This document shows positions 23,629-64,000 of a stretch of 64,000 nt of DNA, in pieces. Both the position numbers and the translations under genes were made by a program. The notes below the pieces were generated by a model. The model made no database searches and was not told the DNA's origin. It worked only from the letters and a program-made list of their open reading frames with translations. Source of the stretch: a virus (lineage: Duplodnaviria; Heunggongvirae; Uroviricota; Caudoviricetes). How positions within the stretch are numbered: position 1 is the stretch's first letter; each line of letters starts with the position of its first letter. Where the stretch lies: IMG/VR virus record IMGVR_UViG_3300025073_000880. One strand, 5' to 3'.

Positions 23629-25731
23629 TTAACGTTGAATATTATTTACTCTATTTAATAAATTAGCCTCGGGGTTATATTCAGTATTAATAGGTATATT
23701 AGTGTTAACCTTTCCACCACGATTGAAACCCCCTGGGTTTGTTGTCCCACCAATTTTTGGAGCTGTTGGGGGTAATGCCCCAGCTTTTAAAAGATTAATC
23801 GGAGCACTTGCCTCCCTGAATGAAGAATTTGAAGTTGCTCCACCGAGAAGAGCTATTGCTTGTTGCACAACACCTGCCGGTATTTCACCAGAAGATATAC
23901 TTGGTAATGATTGACCTGATGGCTGTTGATATGGTGGCACTTGACCATTAGGAATCGGCAATTCACCGCCTGGGACAGGCATGCCGTCTGGCCCAACCAT
24001 CCCAGCCATATCAGGTGATAAAGTGTCGTCTTCTTTTTTAACAATGGAATCCAAAGACCACCCCCAACTATGCAACACCTTTGAAGTTAATTTTTTAGGG
24101 TCAACAAAAGGCAACTGAGAAAGCAACTGGAATAAATCCATCCCTTGTTTTTTGTCTATATCGTTTTTCCCAGCAATAGACGGCATTACAGTAGCCTTAT
24201 AATCATATTGACCGAATATGTCATCTTTTTCTATTAAGGGAAAAGCGTCTTTGCCATCATCTCCAGTTATACGAATAATAAGATTGTCAGTAAAAAACTG
24301 TCTATACATTGAAATCCAATACCTCAAAAGAGTAGCATAACCATCGCCTAAATGATTAACAAACAACCTCACTCGCTCAAGCGTTGATTCTCTTAAATGA
24401 CGAATTTCAGTCGCACTGTTAGCACCACCGCCCTGACCCATTGAAAAATCATCAACGCCTGAAGCATAACGCATATCGCCTTTAAGCAATTCTTCTTCCT
24501 TGTAGGCACTACCTTTAACGTCACTAAACTGAATTTCCCTAACACCATTCGGGTCAGCTGAATAAACAATACCAAATGGTCGTGTTACTAATTCATCCTT
24601 GTTTACATTGGCAAGAGGATTAACAATCCACATTTTATGGATATTAAGGGTAACTGCATCCAACCTCTGATTTTTAATCATATTAAGCATTATCTGTGGA
24701 TTCTCTAAAAGCATTGGTAATCCATACCCTTCAAACTCATTTGGAAGTCTTAAATAAGGAAATTCTATAAATGGTGCTTCCTTGAAATCATACGGTATTG
24801 GGATTGAACCGCCCCTAAGAATTGGAACATCATTAACCATAACCGCATAAGAGTCCTCATATGGTCTCCACCATTCAAAAACCTCATACATCCGCAAATC
24901 CCTAGACGTTTCAGACCCATACCTATCAACATTATATACATTTACACCACTAGCAACACCAGCATTAGATCTGTCTGCATTTTTTACAATTTTATCGTGA
25001 TTTGACTTTACCTCCATTCTAATATTGGCAAAATCTGTTAAATCCCCACCTGGTTTGTTAAGAGCTAATTCTAACCTCTTTTTATCTGCCCCAGGATAAC
25101 TTCTTTTAATAACAGAACCAGGAATAACCCTACGCCTAAACCAATACTGTTTATCCTCTCTTTTTATATTATGCCAATCATACCAAAGGTCGTATGGGTC
25201 AACATATTCAGCATATGGGGCGTCATAAAATGTCCTTGTTTCCTTTTTATAATTAAGCTTCTTTTTAGAAATATCCTTTGTCTGCAAAAATAAACCATCA
25301 CGGATATCCTGTTTCCAACTAGCCTGAAGAAAAGATATCCCATAAATCATTGACGCTCTAACTAAATTTTCAGTTGTAGGGTCCATACCTGCAATCTCCC
25401 AAGAAAACTCTCCAAGCTGTTGAACCTTAATTGCTTTTAACTGGTCATTCTCAGTTCTGCCCATAACGGAAAAATCAGGTCTAGCATCAAGGATACGAGG
25501 CATTAAGGTCTCAACTACAGAGTTTACATAAGGAACAAAAAAGTTTGCCTGCCATGCCTTTATTTGCTGTGCCCGGTCACCATTATAAGCGACATAAAGC
25601 TTATAAGATCTATCAAACCTTGGTTTTATACAAACATCAAAATATCTCTTTGCATCATCTTTTTGAAGTGTGAATGTTCTTATCAACTCTACATCACCAA
25701 AATCAGACGCTAAATATTGGTTTCTAACCAT
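23629..25731 (-). CDS. Portal protein candidate.
   Basis: 700 aa. Positioned between the large terminase and the scaffold/capsid genes. C-terminal Gly/Pro-rich tail. Confidence 0.45.
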   Translation of the reverse strand: MVRNQYLASDFGDVELIRTFTLQKDDAKRYFDVCIKPRFDRSYKLYVAYNGDRAQQIKAWQANFFVPYVNSVVETLMPRILDARPDFSVMGRTENDQLKAIKVQQLGEFSWEIAGMDPTTENLVRASMIYGISFLQASWKQDIRDGLFLQTKDISKKKLNYKKETRTFYDAPYAEYVDPYDLWYDWHNIKREDKQYWFRRRVIPGSVIKRSYPGADKKRLELALNKPGGDLTDFANIRMEVKSNHDKIVKNADRSNAGVASGVNVYNVDRYGSETSRDLRMYEVFEWWRPYEDSYAVMVNDVPILRGGSIPIPYDFKEAPFIEFPYLRLPNEFEGYGLPMLLENPQIMLNMIKNQRLDAVTLNIHKMWIVNPLANVNKDELVTRPFGIVYSADPNGVREIQFSDVKGSAYKEEELLKGDMRYASGVDDFSMGQGGGANSATEIRHLRESTLERVRLFVNHLGDGYATLLRYWISMYRQFFTDNLIIRITGDDGKDAFPLIEKDDIFGQYDYKATVMPSIAGKNDIDKKQGMDLFQLLSQLPFVDPKKLTSKVLHSWGWSLDSIVKKEDDTLSPDMAGMVGPDGMPVPGGELPIPNGQVPPYQQPSGQSLPSISSGEIPAGVVQQAIALLGGATSNSSFREASAPINLLKAGALPPTAPKIGGTTNPGGFNRGGKVNTNIPINTEYNPEANLLNRVNNIQR

Positions 25732-25753: not shown

Positions 25754-27232
25754 CTAATATGAAAATGAAGAAGGAAGGTGTTTTGAATAATCTATCTGCG
25801 TCAACTCTTTATCGTACATTACCTTAAATCCTTGTAACCCTATACCAGCAGCAAAAATACAGTCATCATGATACCCCCTTTGAGATACCATATCACCGTT
25901 ATCGTTATAAACCATTGTGGTCATTTCATCTAAAAGCTCTTTACTGTGAATAATTATCTCTCCATCCCTCAACGCCTTTGCAAGTTCGTCTATAAGAAGT
26001 GGTCGTGTAACCTTATTGGTCTTCCACCCTAACCTATCACTAACAGGCTGTCCCATAGTTTCAAATTTCGATGGACGAAAATAAAGATTAGGATATAGTT
26101 TTTGCCTTAAACATGTGAGTGTAGTAAGTCCATGATTATTAACCTCTACCACCATCAAGGCGTTATTGTATCTACGACCCCACACATCAAGTTTATCAGC
26201 CAACCTATCTGGAGGAACAAGTCCTCTATATAAAGCGACCTCTTCACCCGTTTTCCTGTCCCAAACAATAATAACAGAATAATCACCGTCCTCCATACCT
26301 TCAGAGGTATCAACCCCAAATATGTACAATCCTCCTGGGTCTATTGGTTTATAAATTCTAAAACCATCTTCCATTGAAACAATATGCTTTTTGCCGTCAC
26401 CGACTTCAACCACATCGTTCTCTCCCAAAATATTTTTACGAGATTCAAGGATAACGTTTTGGTCAAATACTGGACGCCCTGACGACATGAATTGCAACAA
26501 GTATTCACGAGCAAACTTCTTTGGATCGTTAAGGCGTCTCCTAATCAAGTTTATTTCGTCATCAGTATATCCCCAGTGATAACCATATGACTTTTTAATA
26601 TAACCATTATTATCATCCATCCACATTCTATGGTACCTATCTCCAATTTGATTTGGCGTACTTTCAATAACAATCTTTCCGTCTATGGGGACAGAAGCCT
26701 CTAAAATACTCATTTTTTCATCTGCCTTATCCCAGAAAGACAACTCCGTAACCAAAACATTGTGTAAAGTATAGCCCCGTCCTACATATTCCGTTGATGG
26801 CAACACAATTATCTTAGAATCCATCGCAGGGAAACTCATTTCATATTTTGAATTATATTCAATTGTAGGCCTAAGCTCTTCTGGTGTTGTGCGGTGAAAT
26901 GTCTTAACCTTATCCAAAAGCTCTGTCACAAGCTGACTGTTATATCCAATAATAGCCGTATTGGTTCCTGGGTTCATAATTGTGTTGTGATAAAAATAGC
27001 CCACCATAGCAGAAGAAAACCCCAATTGTCTGGCCTTCAAGATCATAACCCTATTATTCACCCGCAATGTATTAAAAAGATCCTTTTGGCATTCTTTAAG
27101 CACAAATGGCAATAGGCTTCCGGGCTTCTTTCCTTTTATCTTACAAAAATTTTCAAGATAAAACTTTGGGTCTCTTAAAAGTTTTAATTGTAAATCGTTA
27201 TTCTTCATATAACTTTCTTCCAGCATCATCAT
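25754..27232 (-). CDS. terL: Terminase large subunit.
   Basis: Walker-A variant VMILKARQLGFSSAM (Terminase_6-type KxRQxGxS). 492 aa, with a C-terminal nuclease-like acidic region. Confidence 0.75.
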   Translation of the reverse strand: MMMLEESYMKNNDLQLKLLRDPKFYLENFCKIKGKKPGSLLPFVLKECQKDLFNTLRVNNRVMILKARQLGFSSAMVGYFYHNTIMNPGTNTAIIGYNSQLVTELLDKVKTFHRTTPEELRPTIEYNSKYEMSFPAMDSKIIVLPSTEYVGRGYTLHNVLVTELSFWDKADEKMSILEASVPIDGKIVIESTPNQIGDRYHRMWMDDNNGYIKKSYGYHWGYTDDEINLIRRRLNDPKKFAREYLLQFMSSGRPVFDQNVILESRKNILGENDVVEVGDGKKHIVSMEDGFRIYKPIDPGGLYIFGVDTSEGMEDGDYSVIIVWDRKTGEEVALYRGLVPPDRLADKLDVWGRRYNNALMVVEVNNHGLTTLTCLRQKLYPNLYFRPSKFETMGQPVSDRLGWKTNKVTRPLLIDELAKALRDGEIIIHSKELLDEMTTMVYNDNGDMVSQRGYHDDCIFAAGIGLQGFKVMYDKELTQIDYSKHLPSSFSY

Positions 27233-30977: not shown

Positions 30978-31053
30978 TGGAGCCCATGGAAGGACTTGAA
31001 CCAACAACCATTTGATTACAGATCAACTACTCTACCAATTGAGCTACACAGGC
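30978..31053 (-). tRNA. tRNA with an encoded CCA. Anticodon probably UGU (Thr), but the anticodon and T arms are non-canonical.
   Basis: Acceptor GCCUGUG/CAUGGGC; D arm GCUC-AAUUGGUA-GAGU; T loop UUCAAGU. The T stem has two U-U mismatches. The anticodon loop UCUGUAA has C33. Confidence 0.45.
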
Positions 31054-31621: not shown

Positions 31622-32632
31622 TTATGCGTCATAGTCTAAAAGATATTTATTAGAAATAGCCTTAAACGATAACCTCCCACCCCTATATCCAGACTCTACC
31701 TTTGACCTAACAACAACACCCTCACGATCAACCTCTGGATTTAGCATGCTCTTGCCATCAGCATATCTTAACATATCATCAACTGTTTTTGGCAAGATAA
31801 AGTTATCATCAATTACAGGCACAACGTCAAGGTTTAATGCTTCACACAATTGAACAAAATCTATAAAATCCAAAAAACACCCTGATTTTATATTATAAGC
31901 ATTAAAGAAAAATACCTTTTGCCCGGATAGTTTTAATGGATTTTTTTGAATACCCTCGCCTACAAGCTCTCCTTGCAAAGCCATGTTGTCAGGAAGCTTA
32001 TCTGGCAGATTAAGCTCTTTGGCTAATCGCCACTGAGTAACGTCACTCTCCTCTAATTCCAAATTACGACTACAAACACCAAATACTCCATCAAATTTAT
32101 AAAATGTAATGGACGATCCGTCTAATTTTTCTGTGACATAGAACCTCGACAAAACACCGCCCATGTTCTGAATCCTCTCTTCATCTGTTTTTGGGATAAA
32201 ATTTGGGAATGACCCTTTTACCTTACCCGATAAATAAGCGGGGATTGGCATTTCATACTTTATCACCCCAAGCAAATCAGACACTTCCAAGCCCTCCACC
32301 ATACCCTCTATACCTACACCCAACAAAGAGATAGGCATTACAAGCCCTTGGCTTATTGTGTCTTTCAATTTTACTGTTTTTAACCGTATACCTTCGACCT
32401 CAACACCATCAACCAACATCTTCTTCGGCTTTGATCCTCTTAACAAAAACTCATACTCAGGCTTTATTGGCAAAAACGAATCAATCTCATAATATAAAAC
32501 TAAATCACCGACATTAAACTCATCTTTTTTAACAATGACCCACCAATCGTTTATCCTAACAGATTCAATGAAATCAGCTTTTGGGATAACCCTTTTTTCT
32601 CGAACCCTTTGTATTGTTACCAATTTTCTCAT
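31622..32632 (-). CDS. ATP-dependent RNA ligase (Rnl2/DraRnl-like nucleotidyltransferase).
   Basis: Motif I TEKLDGSS (KxDG); EGVVVR (motif IV); LSFKAI (motif V). Confidence 0.6.
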   Translation of the reverse strand: MRKLVTIQRVREKRVIPKADFIESVRINDWWVIVKKDEFNVGDLVLYYEIDSFLPIKPEYEFLLRGSKPKKMLVDGVEVEGIRLKTVKLKDTISQGLVMPISLLGVGIEGMVEGLEVSDLLGVIKYEMPIPAYLSGKVKGSFPNFIPKTDEERIQNMGGVLSRFYVTEKLDGSSITFYKFDGVFGVCSRNLELEESDVTQWRLAKELNLPDKLPDNMALQGELVGEGIQKNPLKLSGQKVFFFNAYNIKSGCFLDFIDFVQLCEALNLDVVPVIDDNFILPKTVDDMLRYADGKSMLNPEVDREGVVVRSKVESGYRGGRLSFKAISNKYLLDYDA

Positions 32633-33289: not shown

Positions 33290-35350
33290 ACTATGTTCCT
33301 TACCGCCACCACACCACCACAGCTCTGCCTGCTCTCCCTCTCTCCCTATGAAGCAGTCTATCTATTGCTATATTAGTATTGGTAGACTATCCCTCTCCCA
33401 GAATGCTGTCTGGGTCATTGGGTCTGCTTCGGCGGTCGGTCGGTCGTTTAGCGTCGCTTTCATACCGCTAGAATATTTAAAGGCTATTCTCCATGTATGA
33501 ATATGGTCTTTACCACTCATCTTGGAAGCCCAAATATTTTGAGCCTTTTGATCAACGGTAAAATATCTATATAATATCCATATAAAAAACCACCATTCGT
33601 AGCTTACTGCTTACCTATATACCCAACGACGAGTTTGGTAGCAGGAAAGCCACAAATAGTGGTTCTTTTCGTCGTTGGCATATTTTCCTCTTTCTCTCTA
33701 CACCCATTACAGCATACGCATTTAACTGTGTCAAGACATCCCTAAAAAAAACCCTGTGGATAACTCATAAATATCACCTATTTTACCAACAAATTCCACA
33801 CCCTCTTACCATAAAAATTGCATAAATACACCACCAGTACCCCACCAATAAATAATCCAAATGTAACTAAACAATATACAAGCAATGCAATAACACTATA
33901 CACTACAACATCAATTAAAAATAACATATGTTTATATTCTTAGTTTATATTCTTAACCCTCAACACATTGGTGATATGATTAGTAACTACTACTATCTTA
34001 AACTTATAGATTTTGCGGGCAGTTAATGTCGCAAACATATTGCAATCATCGGCTTTGATGCCCACCAGCTATAAGAGTCCAAGGCATTTATGCAATATGC
34101 CAAGAGTTAAAAATATTACCTTTTATGCAATTTCTTTATCTTAACACACAAAACTTTACTTGTCAATCTAAATAACCATAAAACACCAAAACTGTCAATA
34201 TTACCCAAATCCTAGCCGGATTTTTTTTGACCCCAACTCTTTTTCACCTCTCCACCACCCTACCCAACTGCCCCCCCCCCTACCCCCAACCATCACACCA
34301 AAAGGACAAAACCTAACTAACACTCAACCTCCAGCTTCAATTCTGGGGTTCTACAAGCCCCGTACAGCATCGAAACTATACTTTTAATGATAATGTACCA
34401 CTCAGCCTTTTTAGACCCCTGTTTTGACACTCTTTTTGGATGACCCCTGGCTTTGAGGCCTAGGGCTTAGAACCCAAGCCTCAGGGCTCAAGGCTTAGGG
34501 CTTAGAACCCAAGGCTTAAAGCCCATAACCTGAAACCAAAAGCCAAAAGCTCAAGGCTTAAGGCTGGCAACCAAAAGATTAGTAACCACAAAGCAATGGG
34601 GCAACATAACCAGATAGACATACTCTTTCCTAAAATTTTATCCGCAGAGCGTGAGGGTACCATATATAAGGGGGGGGCACATTTGGGGGAGTCCCCGCCA
34701 AGACACTCCCCCCCCACCCTTCCACCACGCAACCACAAGCCTTCCGCCTTTGGGCTTTAGGCTCGTGAGTTGTGGGGGGGCTTGTAAGTTTTTTAGGTTA
34801 GGGCTTGAGGCTTGGGGCTTGGGGCAAAATACCTGTCGGGGAAAATGATATAGACTTGACTGTAACATTTTTAGTCTTTTGGCTTGTTCTATTAGTTTCA
34901 AGTGTCGGCAAATATACCTTTTACGACTCTTAGCTTTGGGCTGTGGATAAAAAAAACTACTCACTTGACAAGCAGAAAAAAATACTGTATCCTAATAATA
35001 GGAAGGAATGAACTGTACCATTGGCATATAGGCTAATATCTTTACACATTTTTGTCGAAAAAAAGGGACTATGGGTGATTATTCATCCACCTTGTCGGCT
35101 CAATGTGTTAGTAATTGGCTTGTAGAGCTTGGAGGCTCAAGGCTTGGGGGCGGGTAAGATAATAGTTGATTACTGCATCGGCTATTCCCGCCCTTAGCGG
35201 TTGGGCGTTCCATATGCCCTTTCGTCTTATGACGATTGCCCTCCGCCTTAGAGCCTTAAAGATCCAAAAATTATTTAACATTTCGCCATTTTTAGCTTAT
35301 TTTTCAATTTTAGCCAAAAAATGGGGCTTAAAATTGACCCATAAGAGATT
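33290..35350. other. Non-coding hub about 2 kb long where transcription diverges. Contains iteron-like repeats, hairpins and G/C homopolymer tracts. Candidate replication origin or regulatory region.
   Basis: No credible ORF. Minus genes end at its left edge and plus genes start at 35357. Contains an 18-bp direct repeat TAGGGCTTAGAACCCAAG x2 (34461 and 34494), GGCTTGAGGCTTGGGGCTTGGGG, and C10/G8/C8/G7 tracts at 34271, 34670, 34698 and 34774. Confidence 0.5.
34334..34432 (+). repeat. Conserved ~100-nt intergenic element, copy a.
   Basis: CTTCAATTCTGGGGTTCTACAAGCCCCGTACAGCATCGAAACTATACTTTTAATGATAATGTACCACTCAGC...TTTTGACAC. The two other copies are at 37949 and 62343 (reverse orientation). Confidence 0.6.
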
Positions 35351-44232: not shown

Positions 44233-45453
44233 TAGTTACTACCAAGAATATTTACCACAGTTGCAGGTAGCTTGACTGCTATCAACCAAACAAAATCCAC
44301 AATGTTCACAATATGGAACATCATTTTGCTTTGGTTCTTCAATGCTTGTGTTGTATATAGTTTTTTCTTCGCTCATATTAGATGACAGATGACAGTGGAA
44401 ATATACTTTTTTCTCTGTTCGTTGCCTCACATAATTCATCTGGTGGGTTTTCATTTCTTTTTTTTGTATGAGGAGTTTCTTTCCCACACAACCGACACCT
44501 ATACCAATAATAAGTTTCTGACAATGTAGAATTTATATCGCTCATTAACGGAAAATAATCATGTTTCATATATAGTTTAAAGTAACATTTTTTGTCTTAA
44601 TCTATCTTCCCCAATTTCACAATAATTTTTATTTATTTCACATCCTATGAAATTCCTGCTTAAATCAATTACGGCATAGCTGGGATTATTTTATCTTCAA
44701 CGCTAATCTCACCGAACAGATTTTTGTTTTTATTCAATTTCATTTTATTTTTCTCGCTTAATCTGGAGGCTTGGATGGTATTGGGGCGTGAGATAGTGTC
44801 CCCATTTAGTTTTACATCTACGCAATTTTTTTTAAACACCCCCAAGCCCCCCAGACTAGGCGAGAATGTCGCCTAGAGAGGTTATTTGGTTATACCTTTA
44901 ACTGCCCACATTACTGATTCTTCTAGCTTTGTTTTTGCTAATGCAATTTCACGACCGTTTTTCTCATTCAAGCCAACATGAATTGCCAGCAATAATTGAT
45001 AAGCTACATCTTTGATGTTATCAATTCTCATCGCATCTTCCTCTGAAAGGTTATGATATATAGGATGAAAAATGTTTTCTAGTTCTCCCGTACATTTATT
45101 TTATTATTTATTTTGTCATTAAGACCCATTTAACATCAGGAAACGCTTTAACAAAGCTTTTCTTTGCCTTTGCATTATTACTCTTCGCCTTTTTTATTAT
45201 TTCTTTTTCAGTTATTTCTTTAAGTGGTATTATGAACAAACTAATGATAAACGGATTCCCAGCCCACACGTGCCAACTTCTTTGTGTTTTATCAAGCCAG
45301 ACATAATCAGATATTTGTTTCCCATTCGCTTTACCCATATTTTTAATTCTTAGAGCCACCCTGCCCCCGTATTAGAGACCTCACGCTTGTCGTTCACCGT
45401 GGGTGAAGGAGGTGCAACAATATACAAAGGGCAGAGTGGCTTTATGAAAAAAA

Positions 45454-47296: not shown

Positions 47297-49441
47297 TTAA
47301 CCCTTGATTACCGCTAATGGATTTAATTCCACAAGTATTTCAACCAAATCTGCCTGGTTTTGCATAACTTCATCTATTGGCTTATATGCGCCAGGGGCTT
47401 CCTCCAAATCATCTTTGTTCCTCATCCCGTGAATTATCCCTTTGTCATCCATTATTTTCTTTTGTTCATCAAAGTCTAACTGTTCACACGCCGCCTTTCG
47501 CCCTAGCCTTCTCCCTGCTCCATGTGAACATGATTCAAACGATTCTTTATTTCCAAGACCTTTGACGATATATGACTTTGTTCCCATTGAACCAGGAATT
47601 ATTCCGATTGTTCCTTCTCTTGCTAAGGTCGCACCCTTTCTGTGAACCCAGACGTTCTGTCCAAAATGATTTTCTTGTGTGGCGTAATTATGAGCAATGT
47701 TAATAAGTCCACTATTGTCGCCATTTTCATTTTTAACTATAAAATTAGTTATTTCAAAAGCAGTCTTGTAATCCATCTCCCTTAAAAAACAGCCAACAAT
47801 TCTATCCATCATCAATTTTCTATTTGCCAAGGCGAACTCTACACAATACTGCATTTCTCCGATATATGCCTGCCCCTCATCACTATCAACTGGTAAAAAT
47901 GCCAGCTGCCATTCTTTCGGGACTGAACTGTGCCATTTATCGTTTAATTCAACAGCTAATTTGTTGTAATAGTCAGCCACCTGCTTGCCTAGGTTTCGGC
48001 TACCACTATGTATCATTATCCAGATATGCCCATCAGATCCTTTTTGTATTTCAATAAAGTGGTTACCACCGCCAAGAGTTCCTATTTGTTTTAGAGCAGA
48101 GTTATATTGCTCTTTGATTATTGGTTTCCCAACATCATAGTTTGTGGGCATTAAATCCTCGTTTTGTTTTTCTTTATGATGATTAAATCCAACTGGTATT
48201 TGCTTTCTTGTCTCTCCCATTATTTTTTTTATGGTTTCAGTCTCAATTTCAGTTAGAGATGTTTTGACCGCACACATTCCGCAGTTCCCTGTAATAAATA
48301 TTTTATTGTTTCTTCTGGCGATAAAATAACCAGTCTCAACTACAAAACAATACTTCTTTCCATCTTTTATCTTTATTTTTTTAGGTTTACTAAATCCAAC
48401 ATAATTATTTTGCGTTTGATATACATGATACCAATCTTTCCAGTTCTTTTGTTTACTCCTAATAATACCTATACCCGCCCTTATCCCATTTAGGGCACAT
48501 ATATATTGGATAGCATCTGCGTTTATTTTATTTGTCGTAGCATATGTTTTGTGATGTCTTTTTTTGTCTATTGAGCCGTCCCAATATAAATATTCATCAA
48601 AAACAACCTTTGCCTGATTTTGGTTACAGTTATACAAATCGGTTAAATCTTTATCGCAAACCCAATCTACTTTAAAACTGATTGATTCTGTCCCATCTTT
48701 ATGAAAATATTCTTTAAAAAAAACATTAGACTTTTTTAATAAAAATTTACATCTCTCTATCTTTCTTCTTTTCTTGAAGTGCATTTCAATAGTGGTATGC
48801 TTGTTTGATTTATTTCTTATATGTCCATCAGCCGACGCCATAACTCTAATAGCTAGTTGCTCATCAGATAATTTTATGCCAGATTCACGCGTAGGGAAAG
48901 TAGTTCTAATGGAATAATAATCTTGTTTTTTACATTTCAACAACATTTCTCTAAAATCCTTGCAAAAATAAGTATAATCATTTTTCTTCCTGCCATAGCC
49001 TTTATAAACCAACATTCTATGTTCATCGCTTAAAACATGGTCTAATCCATATTTATTTTTATATTCAGTAAAATTTTCACAAGGCTTAACGATATATAAT
49101 AACGGTTTACTGAAAAAAGATGTTTCTTTATAATTATCCCAAACTAAAACGTCTTCGTTGTTATATTTATCAATAGTTATCCATCCGTTTTTAGTTAAAA
49201 CTTCGGTTTCTTTATCCACTGCCCCGATATCTACACCCACAGCGTTTGGAATTATTACGCCTTTGGTCGCCAATACACCACCGATAGGCATACCGTAACC
49301 AACATGGCTGTCAGGCATGATAGCGATGTGTTTAAATGCAAATGGAAGATTCGCAAGATTCTTGGCTTGTGCTAATGCTTCATCCTCAATGTCCTTGAGC
49401 CACATCTTTATTGGTATTTTTTCGGTTGCAACAACTTCCAT
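47297..49441 (-). CDS. rtcB: RtcB RNA 3'-phosphate ligase interrupted by an intein.
   Basis: IMPDSHVGYG, GGGNHFIEIQ and SCSHGAGRR motifs. About 313 aa are inserted between VGVDIG and CGMCAV. Confidence 0.8.
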   Translation of the reverse strand: MEVVATEKIPIKMWLKDIEDEALAQAKNLANLPFAFKHIAIMPDSHVGYGMPIGGVLATKGVIIPNAVGVDIGAVDKETEVLTKNGWITIDKYNNEDVLVWDNYKETSFFSKPLLYIVKPCENFTEYKNKYGLDHVLSDEHRMLVYKGYGRKKNDYTYFCKDFREMLLKCKKQDYYSIRTTFPTRESGIKLSDEQLAIRVMASADGHIRNKSNKHTTIEMHFKKRRKIERCKFLLKKSNVFFKEYFHKDGTESISFKVDWVCDKDLTDLYNCNQNQAKVVFDEYLYWDGSIDKKRHHKTYATTNKINADAIQYICALNGIRAGIGIIRSKQKNWKDWYHVYQTQNNYVGFSKPKKIKIKDGKKYCFVVETGYFIARRNNKIFITGNCGMCAVKTSLTEIETETIKKIMGETRKQIPVGFNHHKEKQNEDLMPTNYDVGKPIIKEQYNSALKQIGTLGGGNHFIEIQKGSDGHIWIMIHSGSRNLGKQVADYYNKLAVELNDKWHSSVPKEWQLAFLPVDSDEGQAYIGEMQYCVEFALANRKLMMDRIVGCFLREMDYKTAFEITNFIVKNENGDNSGLINIAHNYATQENHFGQNVWVHRKGATLAREGTIGIIPGSMGTKSYIVKGLGNKESFESCSHGAGRRLGRKAACEQLDFDEQKKIMDDKGIIHGMRNKDDLEEAPGAYKPIDEVMQNQADLVEILVELNPLAVIKG
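48284..49222 (-). mobile_element. Intein (about aa 74-386 of RtcB) with a LAGLIDADG endonuclease domain.
   Basis: Begins AVDKETEVLTKNGWITI (block A-like, Ala1). Ends ...KIFITGN followed by Cys+1. Internal LAIRVMASADGHI and YLYWDGSIDKK motifs. The exteins total ~401 aa, the normal RtcB size. Confidence 0.6.
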
Positions 49442-50337: not shown

Positions 50338-51549
50338 TTATTTATTAAAATACATTAACCTTTCAAATATAGCTTTTATCACATTTACCGTAACAGCGTT
50401 TCCCGCCATTTTATATTTTTGAGTGTCTGATATTTTTACTCCGTCAGAACCTACATCGCACCAATCGTCAGGGAACCCTTGAAGCCGCATACACTCGGTT
50501 GGTGTAAGTCTGCGAATACGACAGCCGTCAAAAATACCATGTTTGTCTTGTGCCGTAACTGTAAAAGCCGGATCATTATTTTCTTTAAATCGCCTACCAT
50601 CTTGTCTTTTCTTTAGCCTATCAGGAGTTAATACGGGGACGGCATATAACCCTGTTTTTGCCCCAAGTCCCCCAGATTCACTTGCTATTGTGGTTGATAT
50701 ACCACTTGGGTCATATACTCGATTCCCTTGCGGACCGCCCACTACCTGTTTAAGTCCTACTTTAATTTGTTTTGGTTGTTTGTAATCAGTCGCGGTTAGT
50801 GCTGACACCCCCCCCCTTGGGTCAAAGATTCTTGCTCGTTCTCCTCGCCCTGAGTTATTGGTACTTCCTGCGATTTTAATGTAAGAGTAAGTTTGTTTGT
50901 TGCTTTCTCCGATAGGAAATATTTTTCGTCCACCAATTCCTCCAAAATATCCGATAATAAACACTCTTTCCCTGTTTTGGGGGACTCCAAAATTTTTGCT
51001 GTTAAGAACCTGCCACTCAACGACATACCCCAAGTCGGAGAGAACCCCAAGTATTGTCTGGAAAGTTTTTCCCTCGTCATGAGATAATAAACCTTTGACA
51101 TTTTCGAGAACCACAAGTCTTGACCGTTTTTCGGCGAGAATCCTTGCGATGTCAAAAAACAATGTTCCTCTTGTATCGTCAAATCCTCTCCTCTTGCCAG
51201 CAACGGAGAAACTTTGGCAAGGAAATCCGCCAACCAAGAGGTCAAAGTCTGGGAGTTGTTTGGGATCAATTTTTGTTGCGTCCCCATAGTTTCTGTGATT
51301 TGGGAAGTGTTTTTCATAGACCTTAATTGCATATTTGTTAATCTCGGAATAACCAACACATAGTGGGGTTGTCCCGTCTGAAGTGCGAAGCATTTTGTTT
51401 GGCTCATTAGCAAACCTGACCCTCCTTTGTTCGCATTCTTCCTTTTCGGATTTCGTGCTGATATGTTTGCATTTAATATAATCTTCATACGCTTGTTGTA
51501 TTCCCAAAGGTAAGCCCCCAATACCAGCAAATGCGTCGAAATATCTCAT
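50338..51549 (-). CDS. DNA (cytosine-5)-methyltransferase.
   Basis: FAGIGG (motif I), GGFPCQSFS (motif IV), ENVKGL (motif VI). Contains an in-frame G9 tract (plus C9 at 50808-50816). Confidence 0.8.
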   Translation of the reverse strand: MRYFDAFAGIGGLPLGIQQAYEDYIKCKHISTKSEKEECEQRRVRFANEPNKMLRTSDGTTPLCVGYSEINKYAIKVYEKHFPNHRNYGDATKIDPKQLPDFDLLVGGFPCQSFSVAGKRRGFDDTRGTLFFDIARILAEKRSRLVVLENVKGLLSHDEGKTFQTILGVLSDLGYVVEWQVLNSKNFGVPQNRERVFIIGYFGGIGGRKIFPIGESNKQTYSYIKIAGSTNNSGRGERARIFDPRGGVSALTATDYKQPKQIKVGLKQVVGGPQGNRVYDPSGISTTIASESGGLGAKTGLYAVPVLTPDRLKKRQDGRRFKENNDPAFTVTAQDKHGIFDGCRIRRLTPTECMRLQGFPDDWCDVGSDGVKISDTQKYKMAGNAVTVNVIKAIFERLMYFNK

Positions 51550-51985
51550 ACTCTCTTGGTTATGTTTTTAATTATATTATCATTTTTACCATTAAAGATT
51601 TAATTCTTGCCCTATCTGGTAAGGGTGTTTTTGTATACATGTTAGCCATAAGTGTAATTTATCAAAAAGTATTTCCTACATCTTTTAAAACATATTATAT
51701 TCCTCACCACCACCGTCTATCATTCGCTCTCTAATCGCTTGTCTCGCTTCTTCGGATAATCCGTTCGCCAATAGTCTTTGATTGTAAATATCGAACATCG
51801 CAACGATAAACATCAAATTATCACCAACATTCTCAAGGTCTTTAATCCTACCGATTTTCTCCGTGGCATAACCGTATTTGTCATTATCGGAATCAACCAC
51901 TTTCCACAATTCCATTGCCTTGGCTTTCACCTCGTCAAATATCTCTTGGCTAGGGGGAGTGTAGTATAGTTTTGTAGTCATATTT

Positions 51986-52600
51986 TTATAAAGTTATATC
52001 GCTTTCTATTTCATTACCCCAAGCATCCCAGCCTTCTGTTTTTTGTCGAGCAAAGAGTTCTATTCTTGGAATATCACCAAATAATTCTATAATTTTATCT
52101 CTGAACACTTGCGGTTTTTCACTATGTTTTGTCCGACCTGTGCTTACAAAACTTGAAACACTATTTGATTTCACAAGCGAATGAGCTTTCCCTTTGACTG
52201 CGAGTAAACACACCTCTTGATTTGATTTCGCATAATATCCTATTCCGAAGAAAGGCGAACCATCTTTATTTGTCTTGAGCCAACTGAAACCAAGCGTCTT
52301 ATATTCGAACCCCCAAGCCTTAATAACCTCTAGTGCTTCCTGTAATTTTGGAAATGTTGCCCACATCATCAAAACGGAAGTGCTATCCGCGATCTCATTT
52401 ATTGGCAATTTTTTAATAGTTTCCGAAGACATGGTTTTGTATTGATAATTTACCCCCCCCTGTGGGACTCCACCGTTTTGATAACTCCACGGGGGGTCTG
52501 CGTATATTATTTGATATTTTTTCATATTTATCTCCGCCCTGCCGTGCCAGCCGCCCCCCAACTTGTCGTTCCGCCAGAGCGGAAAGAGAACAATCGGCAC
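51986..52600 (-). CDS. MT-A70-like DNA N6-adenine methyltransferase.
   Basis: IIYADPPWSY (DPPW motif). Contains an in-frame G8 tract (plus C8 at 52453-52460). Confidence 0.55.
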   Translation of the reverse strand: MPIVLFPLWRNDKLGGGWHGRAEINMKKYQIIYADPPWSYQNGGVPQGGVNYQYKTMSSETIKKLPINEIADSTSVLMMWATFPKLQEALEVIKAWGFEYKTLGFSWLKTNKDGSPFFGIGYYAKSNQEVCLLAVKGKAHSLVKSNSVSSFVSTGRTKHSEKPQVFRDKIIELFGDIPRIELFARQKTEGWDAWGNEIESDITL

Positions 52601-52618
52601 GGACAGGGAAGAACATAT

Positions 52619-53653
52619 TTAACTCTCAATTTTCATCGAAAGATAATTTTGTAATTTCAGCCCAAACTTCCAACTCATACACTCATCAGCCGTCTTACCT
52701 TTGGCGTATTCTGGGTCAATCCCTGACACATATATCCTGCCTGTTGACGGACAACTATACCGCAGAAAATAGGCATCGGGGAAACTCATAAAATCCTTGA
52801 CTAGCCACAACTCATTTCCTCTGTCTGATTTTTCTACCATTCTACCTTTTAGGGATCTTAGCATCACTTCGCTATCGGCATACTTCAACGCAATCATCCT
52901 CTGTTCCATATTCTTCATTGACATTATTTCTTCACCCGATAATTTTTTTTCAACAACCTTATCAAACAAATCTTTCTCAAAACGAACTCCGTGAAGAAAG
53001 TAAAACTCTTTGCCGCCTTTCCATTTTATTGCCGGTTTTAATTCTGAATGAAATTCATTGTCTTTATCCAATAAAACAAGTGGTGTAGGAACTAGGTATA
53101 ATACACCTTCATACTCAACTCTATACCCAAGCCCATATTCTTTAGCTTGCATTAAAAGCTCACAATGTTCTAAATACTTATAATCATTTTCGTTTGGTAA
53201 ATTTTCTTTGTCTGGATTCTGACAATACTCAAATTCATAAACATACCAATCAAAATCATAATCTATGGCTGACCAGGCTGACCAGGCTGACCCGGCTGAC
53301 CCGGCTGACCCGGCTGACCTGGCTGACCAGGCTGACCCGGCTGACCCGGCTGACCTGGCTGACCCGGCTGACCCGGCTGACCTGGCTGACCAGGCTGACC
53401 CGGCTGACCAGGCTGACCAGGCTGACCTGGCTGACCCGGCTGACCAGGCTGACCCGGCTGCATCTTGAAACTTTTTTACAAAAATATCTACACACCACAT
53501 TATTTTATTTGGTCGTGGAAGATCGAAAATATCATACGTTTTCAAAATACACTCCTCGGCGTTTTTCTTGTCCAATTCAAAATCTTTGCGTTCAACATTT
53601 CGGCACATCCTATCAATTAAATCTTGTGTTTTTTGTGAGTAATTATGTGTCAT
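52619..53653 (-). CDS. Hypothetical protein with an internal (SAWSAGSAR)n repeat.
   Basis: Encoded by about 22 units of the 9-bp repeat GGCTGACCN at 53265-53462. Confidence 0.4.
53265..53462. repeat. Tandem 9-bp repeat GGCTGACC(A/C/T), about 22 copies.
   Basis: Perfect periodicity. GC-rich island in an AT-rich genome. Confidence 0.85.
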
Positions 53654-61123: not shown

Positions 61124-61897
61124 CTAAAATAATTTATTCGTATTATTAATCTCTTTTTGTATATCTTCTAACCGCTTTTTCGCAACGGCATAATAGTTCT
61201 CATCTAATTCCATACCAATAAAATTCCTTTTTTCTAACATCGCAACCACAAGAAAGCTCCCACTACCACAAGTATTATCAAGAACTAAATCACCCTCGTT
61301 TGTATAAGTGCGTATAAGATATCGACCTAAGGATACTGGTTTTTGGGTGGGGTGAAGCCCTGATTTATCCCTATTAAATTTCTGTATTGTTTTAGGGTGT
61401 CTTAATCCTGTTTCATTTTTGGTTATCACGTTCTTTAATCCACCTTTCCAATTTTCACTCATTTTACCAGACATCTGGATATATGGCTTTCCCTCAACTT
61501 TTTGTGGGTTATACTTCATAGAGACTCTTGTCCCATTCGTAACTCTGCCCTTACCAAACACAAAAACCTGTTCATGTATTCTAAATGGTTGTAATTTGAT
61601 ATTCGGTGCATTTGTTCCATTATCCTTTTCCCAAACCCAGTCATATTTATAAAGGTCAGAAGCCTGCAAAAAAAGCTGAACACCAAACTTAAACGTCCCT
61701 GTTAAAACTATAGCGCCGTCATCTTTTATAATTCTTCTATATGAAGCCCATAATAATTCAGGGTTTATTGGAAAGTCCCACTTATTTCCCGTTTCAGCAT
61801 AAGGCAAATCGCAAAGAATCATGTCTATACTTTTATCAGGTATGTCTTTCATCAGCTCTAAGCAATTGCCGCATAATATTTGGTTCATACCTGGCAT
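61124..61897 (-). CDS. DNA N4/N6 methyltransferase, beta-class (motif IV before motif I).
   Basis: DMILCDLPY (DPPY-like) N-terminal; LDNTCGSGSFLV (FxGxG) C-terminal. Confidence 0.65.
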   Translation of the reverse strand: MPGMNQILCGNCLELMKDIPDKSIDMILCDLPYAETGNKWDFPINPELLWASYRRIIKDDGAIVLTGTFKFGVQLFLQASDLYKYDWVWEKDNGTNAPNIKLQPFRIHEQVFVFGKGRVTNGTRVSMKYNPQKVEGKPYIQMSGKMSENWKGGLKNVITKNETGLRHPKTIQKFNRDKSGLHPTQKPVSLGRYLIRTYTNEGDLVLDNTCGSGSFLVVAMLEKRNFIGMELDENYYAVAKKRLEDIQKEINNTNKLF

Positions 61898-62234: not shown

Positions 62235-62306
62235 GTACTCAGAACAGGGTTTGAACCTGCGACCAAAGAGGTATAAACTCTCCGCTCTACCGCTGAGCTA
62301 TCTGAG
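62235..62306 (-). tRNA. tRNA-Ile, anticodon UAU (reads AUA). No CCA is encoded.
   Basis: Acceptor ACUCAGA/UCUGAGU; D arm GCUC-AGCGGUA-GAGC; anticodon arm GAGAG-UUUAUAC-CUCUU; T arm GCAGG-UUCAAAC-CCUGU. Confidence 0.7.
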
Positions 62307-62342
62307 TAAAACCGACATATTATGAAACATTAACCCCCAATG

Positions 62343-63497: not shown

Positions 63498-64000
63498 ATT
63501 ATTTGTTAGAATTAATTATTTTAAAAATTTGAGTATAGTAAATAACCAAGTGTTCTATTAAAGCATTATATATCTGCCTGCTGCTTGTTAGACCATTATT
63601 TTTCAGTATCCCTACAGGGTAATCCCTGTCAAATCCATAATGATCTGTTTCTCCTTGATAAAACTCATCCAGTTTGATTGCATCAGACGAACTTAGCGTT
63701 AAATCACCACCCATCCTCTCTTCTGGGTACCCAATCAGATCTATAATTATTTTTTCTAAATAACCATTATCTGAGCAATACTCACAGTGGAATAAGTCAT
63801 TAATCTTCGTATCATTTTTTTTTATTATAATGTAAGCATCGATTAATTGTATGATATATTTCTCTAAATACATTTTATATAGAAATTTTTCTTCTATATA
63901 ACCCACAACCGCCCTTAAACGCTCCCTCTCTTTTTTCTTTTCTTTTTCTATATCCATATACTTTTTATTTTACTAATTTTTTCAACACCCCCCCCCCCCC

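Follow-up and report, generated by a model that had tools for sequence, protein, structure and literature searches.

Poly-G phase variation of a bacterial methyltransferase (MTase) gene is known from Campylobacter jejuni, in the Type IIG gene cj0031 (PMC4889913), and Helicobacter pylori carries MTases that are switched by poly-G/C tracts (PMC4209511). Type III Mod phasevarions have been described in Haemophilus, Neisseria and Moraxella (PMC6902483, PMC1557822). Among phages, hypermutable poly-G tracts are reported from Campylobacter Fletchervirus phages (Sorensen et al. 2021, Cell Rep 35:109214, as cited in PMC10877375 and PMC11868660). In full-text literature searches, judged by the titles and abstracts of the top results, we found no description of repeat-switched MTases encoded by phages; poly-G switching is known in bacterial MTases and in phage tail genes, and a phage MTase version was not found described. 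Here we analysed a stretch of 64,000 nucleotides, hereafter the window, which is part of the genome of an uncultured tailed phage (IMG/VR record IMGVR_UViG_3300025073_000880). Two genes on its minus strand, a C5-cytosine MTase gene (50338..51549) and an MT-A70 family N6-adenine MTase gene (51986..52525), each contain a long G tract in frame. We give about an even chance to the reading that both are slippage-prone ON/OFF contingency (phase-variable) tracts in orphan phage MTase genes. Judged by sequence comparison, the MT-A70 tract is probably a contingency locus; for the C5 tract, where the argument is one of analogy, the same proposal is tentative.

The two phage genes share with the homopolymer-switched restriction-modification (R-M) and MTase genes of bacteria a G tract within the MTase reading frame, in which a slip of one nucleotide either way would yield a truncated, inactive enzyme, and, in the case of MT-A70, a tract that is conserved yet length-polymorphic among relatives. 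The bacterial genes are chromosomal, often fused to or paired with a restriction function, and belong to hosts with weak mismatch repair, whereas here the genes encode orphan phage MTases and the DNA affected would be mainly the phage's own. With the Mod phasevarions the common ground is ON/OFF switching of an N6-adenine MTase by a simple repeat, leading to epigenetically distinct subpopulations. Phasevarions differ in using tetra- or pentanucleotide repeats, another MTase family and a res partner, and in having a host regulon as their defining output. A sequence-only reading of the window had likened the two genes to Mod phasevarions, a likeness that extends to the switching mechanism and not to the enzyme family or the res partner. 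The enzymes belong to PF00145 and PF05063, not to Type III Mod, and the genes called in the 10 kb on either side of the MTase genes showed no restriction endonuclease or Res domain. Both MTases are predicted to be orphan phage enzymes, with no restriction partner among those called genes. Fletchervirus tracts are reported to share with the present ones poly-G slippage in phage genes that gives rise to virion subpopulations; they lie in receptor-binding protein genes and act on host recognition, while the tracts studied here lie in modification genes of an uncultured phage.

The MT-A70 gene is intact and encodes 179 amino acids that match PF05063 (E=1.2e-29) over model positions 1-172 of 172, with a further match to solved MT-a70 proteins (E=2e-19). 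The product is predicted to be an N6-adenine MTase whose nucleic-acid target may be DNA or RNA. Its start is the ATG at 52525, as the N-terminus MKKYQIIYADPPW is common to the whole family in the alignment, and not the GTG at 52600, the end of the interval given in the sequence-only reading. The C6 run at 52554-52559 on the plus strand therefore falls in the hairpin of the 5' leader, outside the gene. A second C6 run is on the coding strand at 52491..52496 (G6 on the plus strand), where GAC CCC CCG TGG encodes the catalytic DPPW motif (residues 10-13). This second run is short and is not kept in relatives, which use CCA, CCG and CCT. The G8 tract itself lies at 52453..52460 on the minus strand, in frame and nine codons past DPPW (CAG GGG GGG GTA, encoding Q22-G-G-V25; the plus strand reads C8). 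In silico, G7 brings an immediate TAA and a product of 24 amino acids, and G9 adds 12 more codons before a stop, giving 37 amino acids.

The evidence that carries the argument comes from relatives of this gene. The MT-A70 family is large and tightly conserved; it was represented by its 120 best clusters, with 64-100% identity, within which DPPWSYQNGGVPQGGV is nearly invariant. DNA was recovered from IMG/VR, GTDB genomes and exact-protein look-ups for 16 distinct lineages in 17 loci, two of which (L335 and L251) are ON and OFF alleles of one lineage; the L numbers used here are labels of loci fetched around C5 or MT-A70 homologs. The glycine codons of the PQGGV motif are GGG in 28 of 30 cases (15 lineages), against 1 of 31 at the NGGV Gly-Gly pair four codons upstream (Fisher P=6e-14), and 11% of the other glycine codons in these genes are GGG. 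The codons that flank the tract vary synonymously: the aspartate is GAC or GAT, both prolines occur in all four forms, the asparagine is AAC or AAT, the valine GTC, GTT, GTG or GTA, and the glutamine CAA or CAG. The GGG counts and the synonymous variation of the flanks together mean that the G run is maintained as nucleotide sequence, to a degree that neither the protein motif nor codon bias calls for.

This result bears on an explanation that we regard as unlikely, in which there is no switch: Gly-Gly motifs and codon usage would produce the tracts as a by-product, and the OFF relatives would be homopolymer sequencing or assembly errors. PQGGV is a conserved protein motif, and GGG makes up 24% of the glycine codons in the window, both of which fit such a by-product; the contrast between 28/30 and 1/31 at the control Gly-Gly goes beyond what motif or codon bias would give.

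In-frame tracts, either G8 or CAA followed by G7, are present in the window and in L164, L166, L171, L244, L252, L253 and L335. In six independent lineages the gene is out of frame exactly at the tract and has no other frameshift. These are L169 (G9, on a 19-kb contig), L170, identical to L333 (CAA+G6, on a 47-kb contig and in two assemblies), L248, identical to L249 (CAA+G9, in two assemblies), L251 (G7), L332 (G9) and L334 (G7). The ON allele L335 (G8) and the OFF allele L251 (G7), which come from different sequencing runs, are one synonymous single-nucleotide polymorphism (SNP) and one G apart over the 540-nt gene. The N-terminus is missing in 7 of the 120 best protein clusters, five times by a tract frameshift, once by an ATG to ATA change and once by an in-frame stop, and an A6-A8 run at the start of the gene has no frameshift in the 17 loci read. 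The tract is the dominant site of disruption of the MT-A70 gene among relatives. That two OFF alleles were each found in two assemblies (L170/L333 and L248/L249), one of them on the 47-kb contig, and that the A6-A8 run stays in frame, both argue against sequencing error as their origin.

Two candidates for OFF alleles were rejected as unrelated to the tract. The protein of the four P0206 contigs (L244-247) begins at Met32, and the gene has the ATG to ATA change at its start, with G8 in frame, and the disruption in P0228 (L250) is the in-frame stop.

A different explanation accepts the indels as real and sees in the tract a mutational weak point, at which lineages with no further need of the MTase lose it irreversibly and without adaptive, reversible switching. 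The OFF alleles are fixed at the consensus level in their contigs, the family holds other inactivating lesions (those of L244-247 and L250), and reversal has never been observed directly, all of which would fit such a hotspot of decay. A costly weak point should, however, be purged by a change to GGT or GGA, yet it is kept in 13 of 15 lineages while the neighbouring synonymous sites are saturated. The OFF genes carry a single frameshift each and no further decay, L251 being the ON allele apart from one SNP and the tract change, and three MTase classes have tracts at sites that are not homologous. On balance we consider irreversible loss improbable as an account of these tracts.

Poly-G runs were counted across 237 non-redundant loci around C5 and MT-A70 homologs, with loci picked for truncation left out. 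Sequence that matches MTases (197 kb) holds 13 G/C runs of at least 8, and the flanks (2.01 Mb) hold 18. Poly-G runs are about 9-fold denser in MTase genes than in flanks (P=8e-9 in the version with all loci). Half of the outside runs (9 of 18) in fact lie in or adjoin MTase genes that the BLAST mask had missed: in the target-recognition domains (TRDs) of C5 genes in L081 (two runs), L202, L207 (two runs) and L212; in L172, where an N-terminal G9 encodes M-R-G-G-V in a probable N6_N4-type MTase with a DPPY motif; and in L255 and L288, at the edges (3' and 5') of MT-A70 genes. An enrichment of about 9-fold or more speaks against a mere by-product of codon usage. The raw figure owes much to the single homologous PQGGV site, and the independent signal is that such runs turn up again at sites without homology and in three classes of MTase. 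About ten distinct poly-G sites were found in MTase genes. Further positions in MT-A70 genes are AVRGGGV with G10 in L207 and L212 and KRGGG with G11 and G8 in L257 and L265, and in a separate MT-A70 subfamily L234 is OFF at its own G9, where G8 would restore LPVGGVADNN.

In L207 (2609-3977) and L208 (1901-3269) the C5 MTase is encoded by two overlapping ORFs that are split in the variable region. The apparent frameshift in this gene had been a candidate OFF allele and was rejected, as it is not at a tract and looks like a split two-ORF enzyme, presumably resembling M.AquI. The second ORF holds G8 and G10, both in frame, and adjoins an MT-A70 gene with G10, so that this one phage has three poly-G tracts across two adjacent MTase genes. 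A C5 homolog with G8 that is apparently OFF, L081, was likewise dropped, since it has several frameshifts and probably derives from an error-prone assembly or is a pseudogene.

The C5 gene of the window is intact and encodes 403 amino acids, of which residues 64-398 match PF00145 (E=1.4e-79). The alignment shows FAGIGG, GFPCQ, ENV, QNRER and GNAV, and the product is predicted to be a C-5 cytosine DNA methyltransferase with motifs I to X. Bacillus phages SPR, phi3T and rho11s encode multispecific C5 MTases with tandem TRDs, and the present enzyme shares the ten-motif PF00145 core with these and with M.HhaI (E=2e-53). As in the tandem-TRD enzymes, its HhaI-like TRD is preceded by a second TRD-like module, at about residues 215-268, which ends in ...TATDYKQPKQI. 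In the alignment this extra module (...GERARIFDPRGGVSALTATDYKQPKQI), which carries the G tract, is present in only some of the C5 homologs. We know of no poly-G tract described for the MTases of SPR, phi3T and rho11s or for M.HhaI. The G9 tract lies at 50808..50816 on the minus strand (AGG GGG GGG GTG, encoding R245-G246-G247-V248; the plus strand reads C9), in frame, in a TRD loop directly ahead of the motif S-A-L-T-A-T-D-Y-K. In silico, G7, G8, G10 and G11 all lead to truncated products of 250-254 amino acids that lack motifs IX-X, and a frameshift in this first module also removes the downstream HhaI-like TRD. The positions that the sequence-only reading gave for both tracts are exact, its identification of the two gene families is confirmed by the Pfam matches, and both genes are, as it stated, in the ON frame. 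Each reading frame runs uninterrupted to its usual stop.

A separate clade of phage C5 enzymes, in L202, L207/L208 and L212, has G8 in the same TRD loop ('GGV.PTL'), just before (P)TL. Their loop peptides are EGGVMPTL, AGGVAPTL and SGGVVPTL, and the codon before G8 is GAG, GCG and TCG in L202, L207 and L212, respectively; the residue differs while the final G is constant. Support for the C5 tract as a switch comes solely by analogy with these three loci. In IMG/VR, no match to the C5 protein exceeded about 50% full-length identity (short best segments reached 53-66%). Among the matches listed in a scan of metagenome contigs, which did not include the identical contigs, best-segment identity was at most 66% (no more than about 55% for the whole protein), and blastn against GenBank phages returned distant MTase matches only. 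The proposal of the sequence-only reading that both genes are phase-variable switches gains support for MT-A70 from nucleotide conservation, six OFF relatives, the ON/OFF pair and the enrichment in MTase genes, and does not gain it for C5, which lacks close relatives.

Measured against what is expected of simple-sequence-repeat contingency genes, both tracts are uninterrupted in-frame repeats of at least 7-8 units, and a change in their length truncates the product in silico. The tract is kept beyond protein constraint in MT-A70, and in C5 this would hold by analogy. Both ON and OFF lengths (G6-G9) occur among MT-A70 relatives, and ON lengths only in the roughly 20 clonal assemblies of this phage.

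Several observations weigh against a switch at these loci. The first concerns chance. The sequence-only reading had judged the tracts very unlikely by chance in a genome of about 33% GC; GC is 35.2% in the window and about 40% around the MTase region, and the judgement was overstated. When synonymous codons are permuted among the 36 ORFs, 0.65 runs of at least 8 are expected, with 2 observed (P=0.13 for the window), which agrees with the by-product explanation. Under a first-order Markov model, the 64 kb should contain about 0.6 G/C runs of at least 8, where six are found, four of them intergenic (C10 at 34271, G8 at 34670, C8 at 34708 and C13 or longer at 63988). In favour of a switch, the per-gene probability of at least one run of this length is 0.016 for C5 and 0.019 for MT-A70, jointly 3e-4, in a test that was post hoc. 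The window has no excess of GGG-GGG pairs (3 of 74 Gly-Gly), and a tRNA-Gly(CCC) as a cause of GGG use is not found in the phage, which encodes only tRNA-Thr(TGT) and tRNA-Ile(TAT).

The second concerns relatives. Most OFF contigs of MT-A70 relatives are short (1-5 kb, several of them 1-2 kb), so that homopolymer errors at low coverage are possible, and L081 proves that collections contain error-ridden contigs. The coverage of contigs by open frames, taken as a proxy for assembly quality, gave no discrimination among OFF contigs. For the C5 tract, the nearest homologs are at most 60% identical, and those that also carry the extra module read G-L or G-I at the tract position in place of G-G.

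The third concerns the phage itself. An identical C5 protein is found on 13-18 contigs and an identical MT-A70 protein on about 20 (JGI, ENA, NCBI and Logan), all of them ON, as the by-product explanation would have it. Ten OFF products were predicted and looked up by exact sequence in a collection of about 15 billion proteins, where none is present, and the intergenic C10, G8, C8 and G7 tracts are also identical across four assemblies, over 5-6.7 kb of identical sequence. The sequence-only reading had named invariance of tract length across deep reads and isolates as the observation that would count against it. Such invariance is indeed seen, at the consensus level and in about 20 ON assemblies; because these are clonal (a comparison of about 29 kb showed 0 SNPs), it is real but weak evidence against low-frequency switching.

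Over 22 kb, the window and contig Ga0208375_1000311 differ by a single in-frame indel of 63 bp (7 units; 53347-53409), which lies in a 9-bp tandem repeat. This repeat (53267-53460; consensus GGCTGACCC, 21.6 copies) is inside a DUF6745-like gene, where it encodes an (S-A-W/G) repeat. The only homopolymer that differs between assemblies is the longest one, which is G12 without a TG interruption in Ga0208375_1000311 (L339, 2461-2472) and G13+TG in the window; the adjoining 2.9 kb shared by L339 and the window end has 0 mismatches. In the window it appears as a poly-C at 63988-64000, of C13 or longer since the window stops within it. It precedes the ATG of a 152-aa ORF (63499-63957, minus strand) by about 30 nt.

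If the tracts are indeed contingency loci, slipped-strand mispairing during replication of the phage DNA would add or remove one G, and the frame shift would end translation at 24 or 37 amino acids in MT-A70 and at 250-254 amino acids, before motifs IX-X, in C5. A further slip would restore the gene. The phage population would then consist of ON and OFF genotypes, with progeny DNA that does or does not carry N6-methyladenine and 5-methylcytosine. The benefit could be one of bet-hedging, in which methylated DNA would escape classical restriction, and unmethylated DNA would escape methylation-dependent (Type IV/IIM) restriction or the cost of methylation. Reversibility, the rate of switching, a selective benefit and like behaviour of the C5 tract are steps that we infer. 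Were this so, the logic of contingency loci, so far applied to R-M genes of bacteria and to phage tail fibres, would also cover the anti-restriction methylases of phages, and phage populations would hold a standing epigenetic heterogeneity that bears on the prediction of host range. It would also bear on the survival of phages in hosts that combine Type I-III with Type IV restriction, and many MTase genes of viromes that are taken for pseudogenes could be OFF-phase alleles.

A broader proposal, which at present is speculative and rather doubtful, is that a widespread group of environmental phages, with Patescibacteria as possible hosts, maintains contingency tracts of poly-G in orphan MTases of up to three classes (MT-A70, C5 and N6_N4), and that their bursts mix methylation repertoires as an epigenetic bet-hedging against both classical and methylation-dependent restriction.

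The only close MT-A70 relatives in species-representative genomes are L252 (JBBUCK010000046.1) and L253 (CAYIIM010000060.1), with 83-84% identity and an in-frame G8 in both. Their contigs are binned with Patescibacteria and Saccharibacteria metagenome-assembled genomes, which hints either that this phage group infects bacteria of the candidate phyla radiation or that the contigs are mis-binned phage.

The GC-rich 5' leader of the MT-A70 gene (52526..52618, minus strand) folds into a hairpin so long that it extends to the GGAG ribosome-binding site. This hairpin has a minimum free energy of -47.9 kcal/mol (z=-3.9), and 0 of 200 shuffles fold as well. The hairpin has no U-tract and is adjoined by the DUF6745-like gene and the MT-A70 start; from the structure model, it could be a translational or mRNA-stability element. 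A strong hairpin just upstream of the start, together with nucleotide-level conservation as such and the intergenic position of the remaining long G/C tracts of this phage, could also be taken to mean that the G run is kept for some other function, be it programmed ribosomal frameshifting, transcriptional slippage, a protein-binding site or a regulatory nucleic-acid structure. We hold this to be highly improbable, as both alternative frames stop within 0-12 codons and offer no alternative product, and as tract positions differ among MTase subfamilies, a poor fit to a fixed structural or regulatory site. A single G8 is, moreover, insufficient for an intramolecular quadruplex, and an Rfam scan of the whole window, covering SAM/SAH riboswitches in the leader, gave only two tRNAs at or above the gathering threshold.

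The two MTase genes belong to a string on the minus strand that runs from the DUF6745-like repeat protein gene (52619-53653) through the GC-rich leader and the MT-A70 gene to a 98-aa ORF (51685..51981) and the C5 gene, followed by a Band-7 gene and the RtcB gene. The 98-aa ORF between the two MTase genes is called as a gene in public contigs and gave no match in a Pfam search. A third DNA MTase gene lies at 61124-61897 on the minus strand (PF01555, N6_N4_Mtase; phrog_67, E=2e-66) and has no long G/C tract.

The phage nature of the window is seen in its portal gene (23629-25731) and large terminase gene (25754-27232), and replication and repair genes, GroEL and RtcB are among the public gene calls for the phage contigs. 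The RtcB RNA ligase gene (47297-49441, minus strand) has an intein-like insertion with a faint LAGLIDADG match, and a second RNA ligase gene, phrog_968, is found at 31622-32632. The two phage-encoded tRNA genes lie on the minus strand, tRNA-Thr(TGT) at 30978-31053 and tRNA-Ile(TAT) at 62235-62307. Between 34200 and 35300 there is a non-coding region of 1.1 kb at a switch of GC skew and transcription direction, which holds C10 (34271), G8 (34670), C8 (34708), G7 (34774) and many short repeats of the GGCTT/AAGCC type and could be an origin or a divergent-promoter region. Finally, a 49-aa ORF at 44882-45031 on the minus strand has a match to PF24729 (Acb2/Tad1 hairpin) among the Pfam hits precomputed for the public contig, and is a candidate anti-CBASS/Thoeris sponge.

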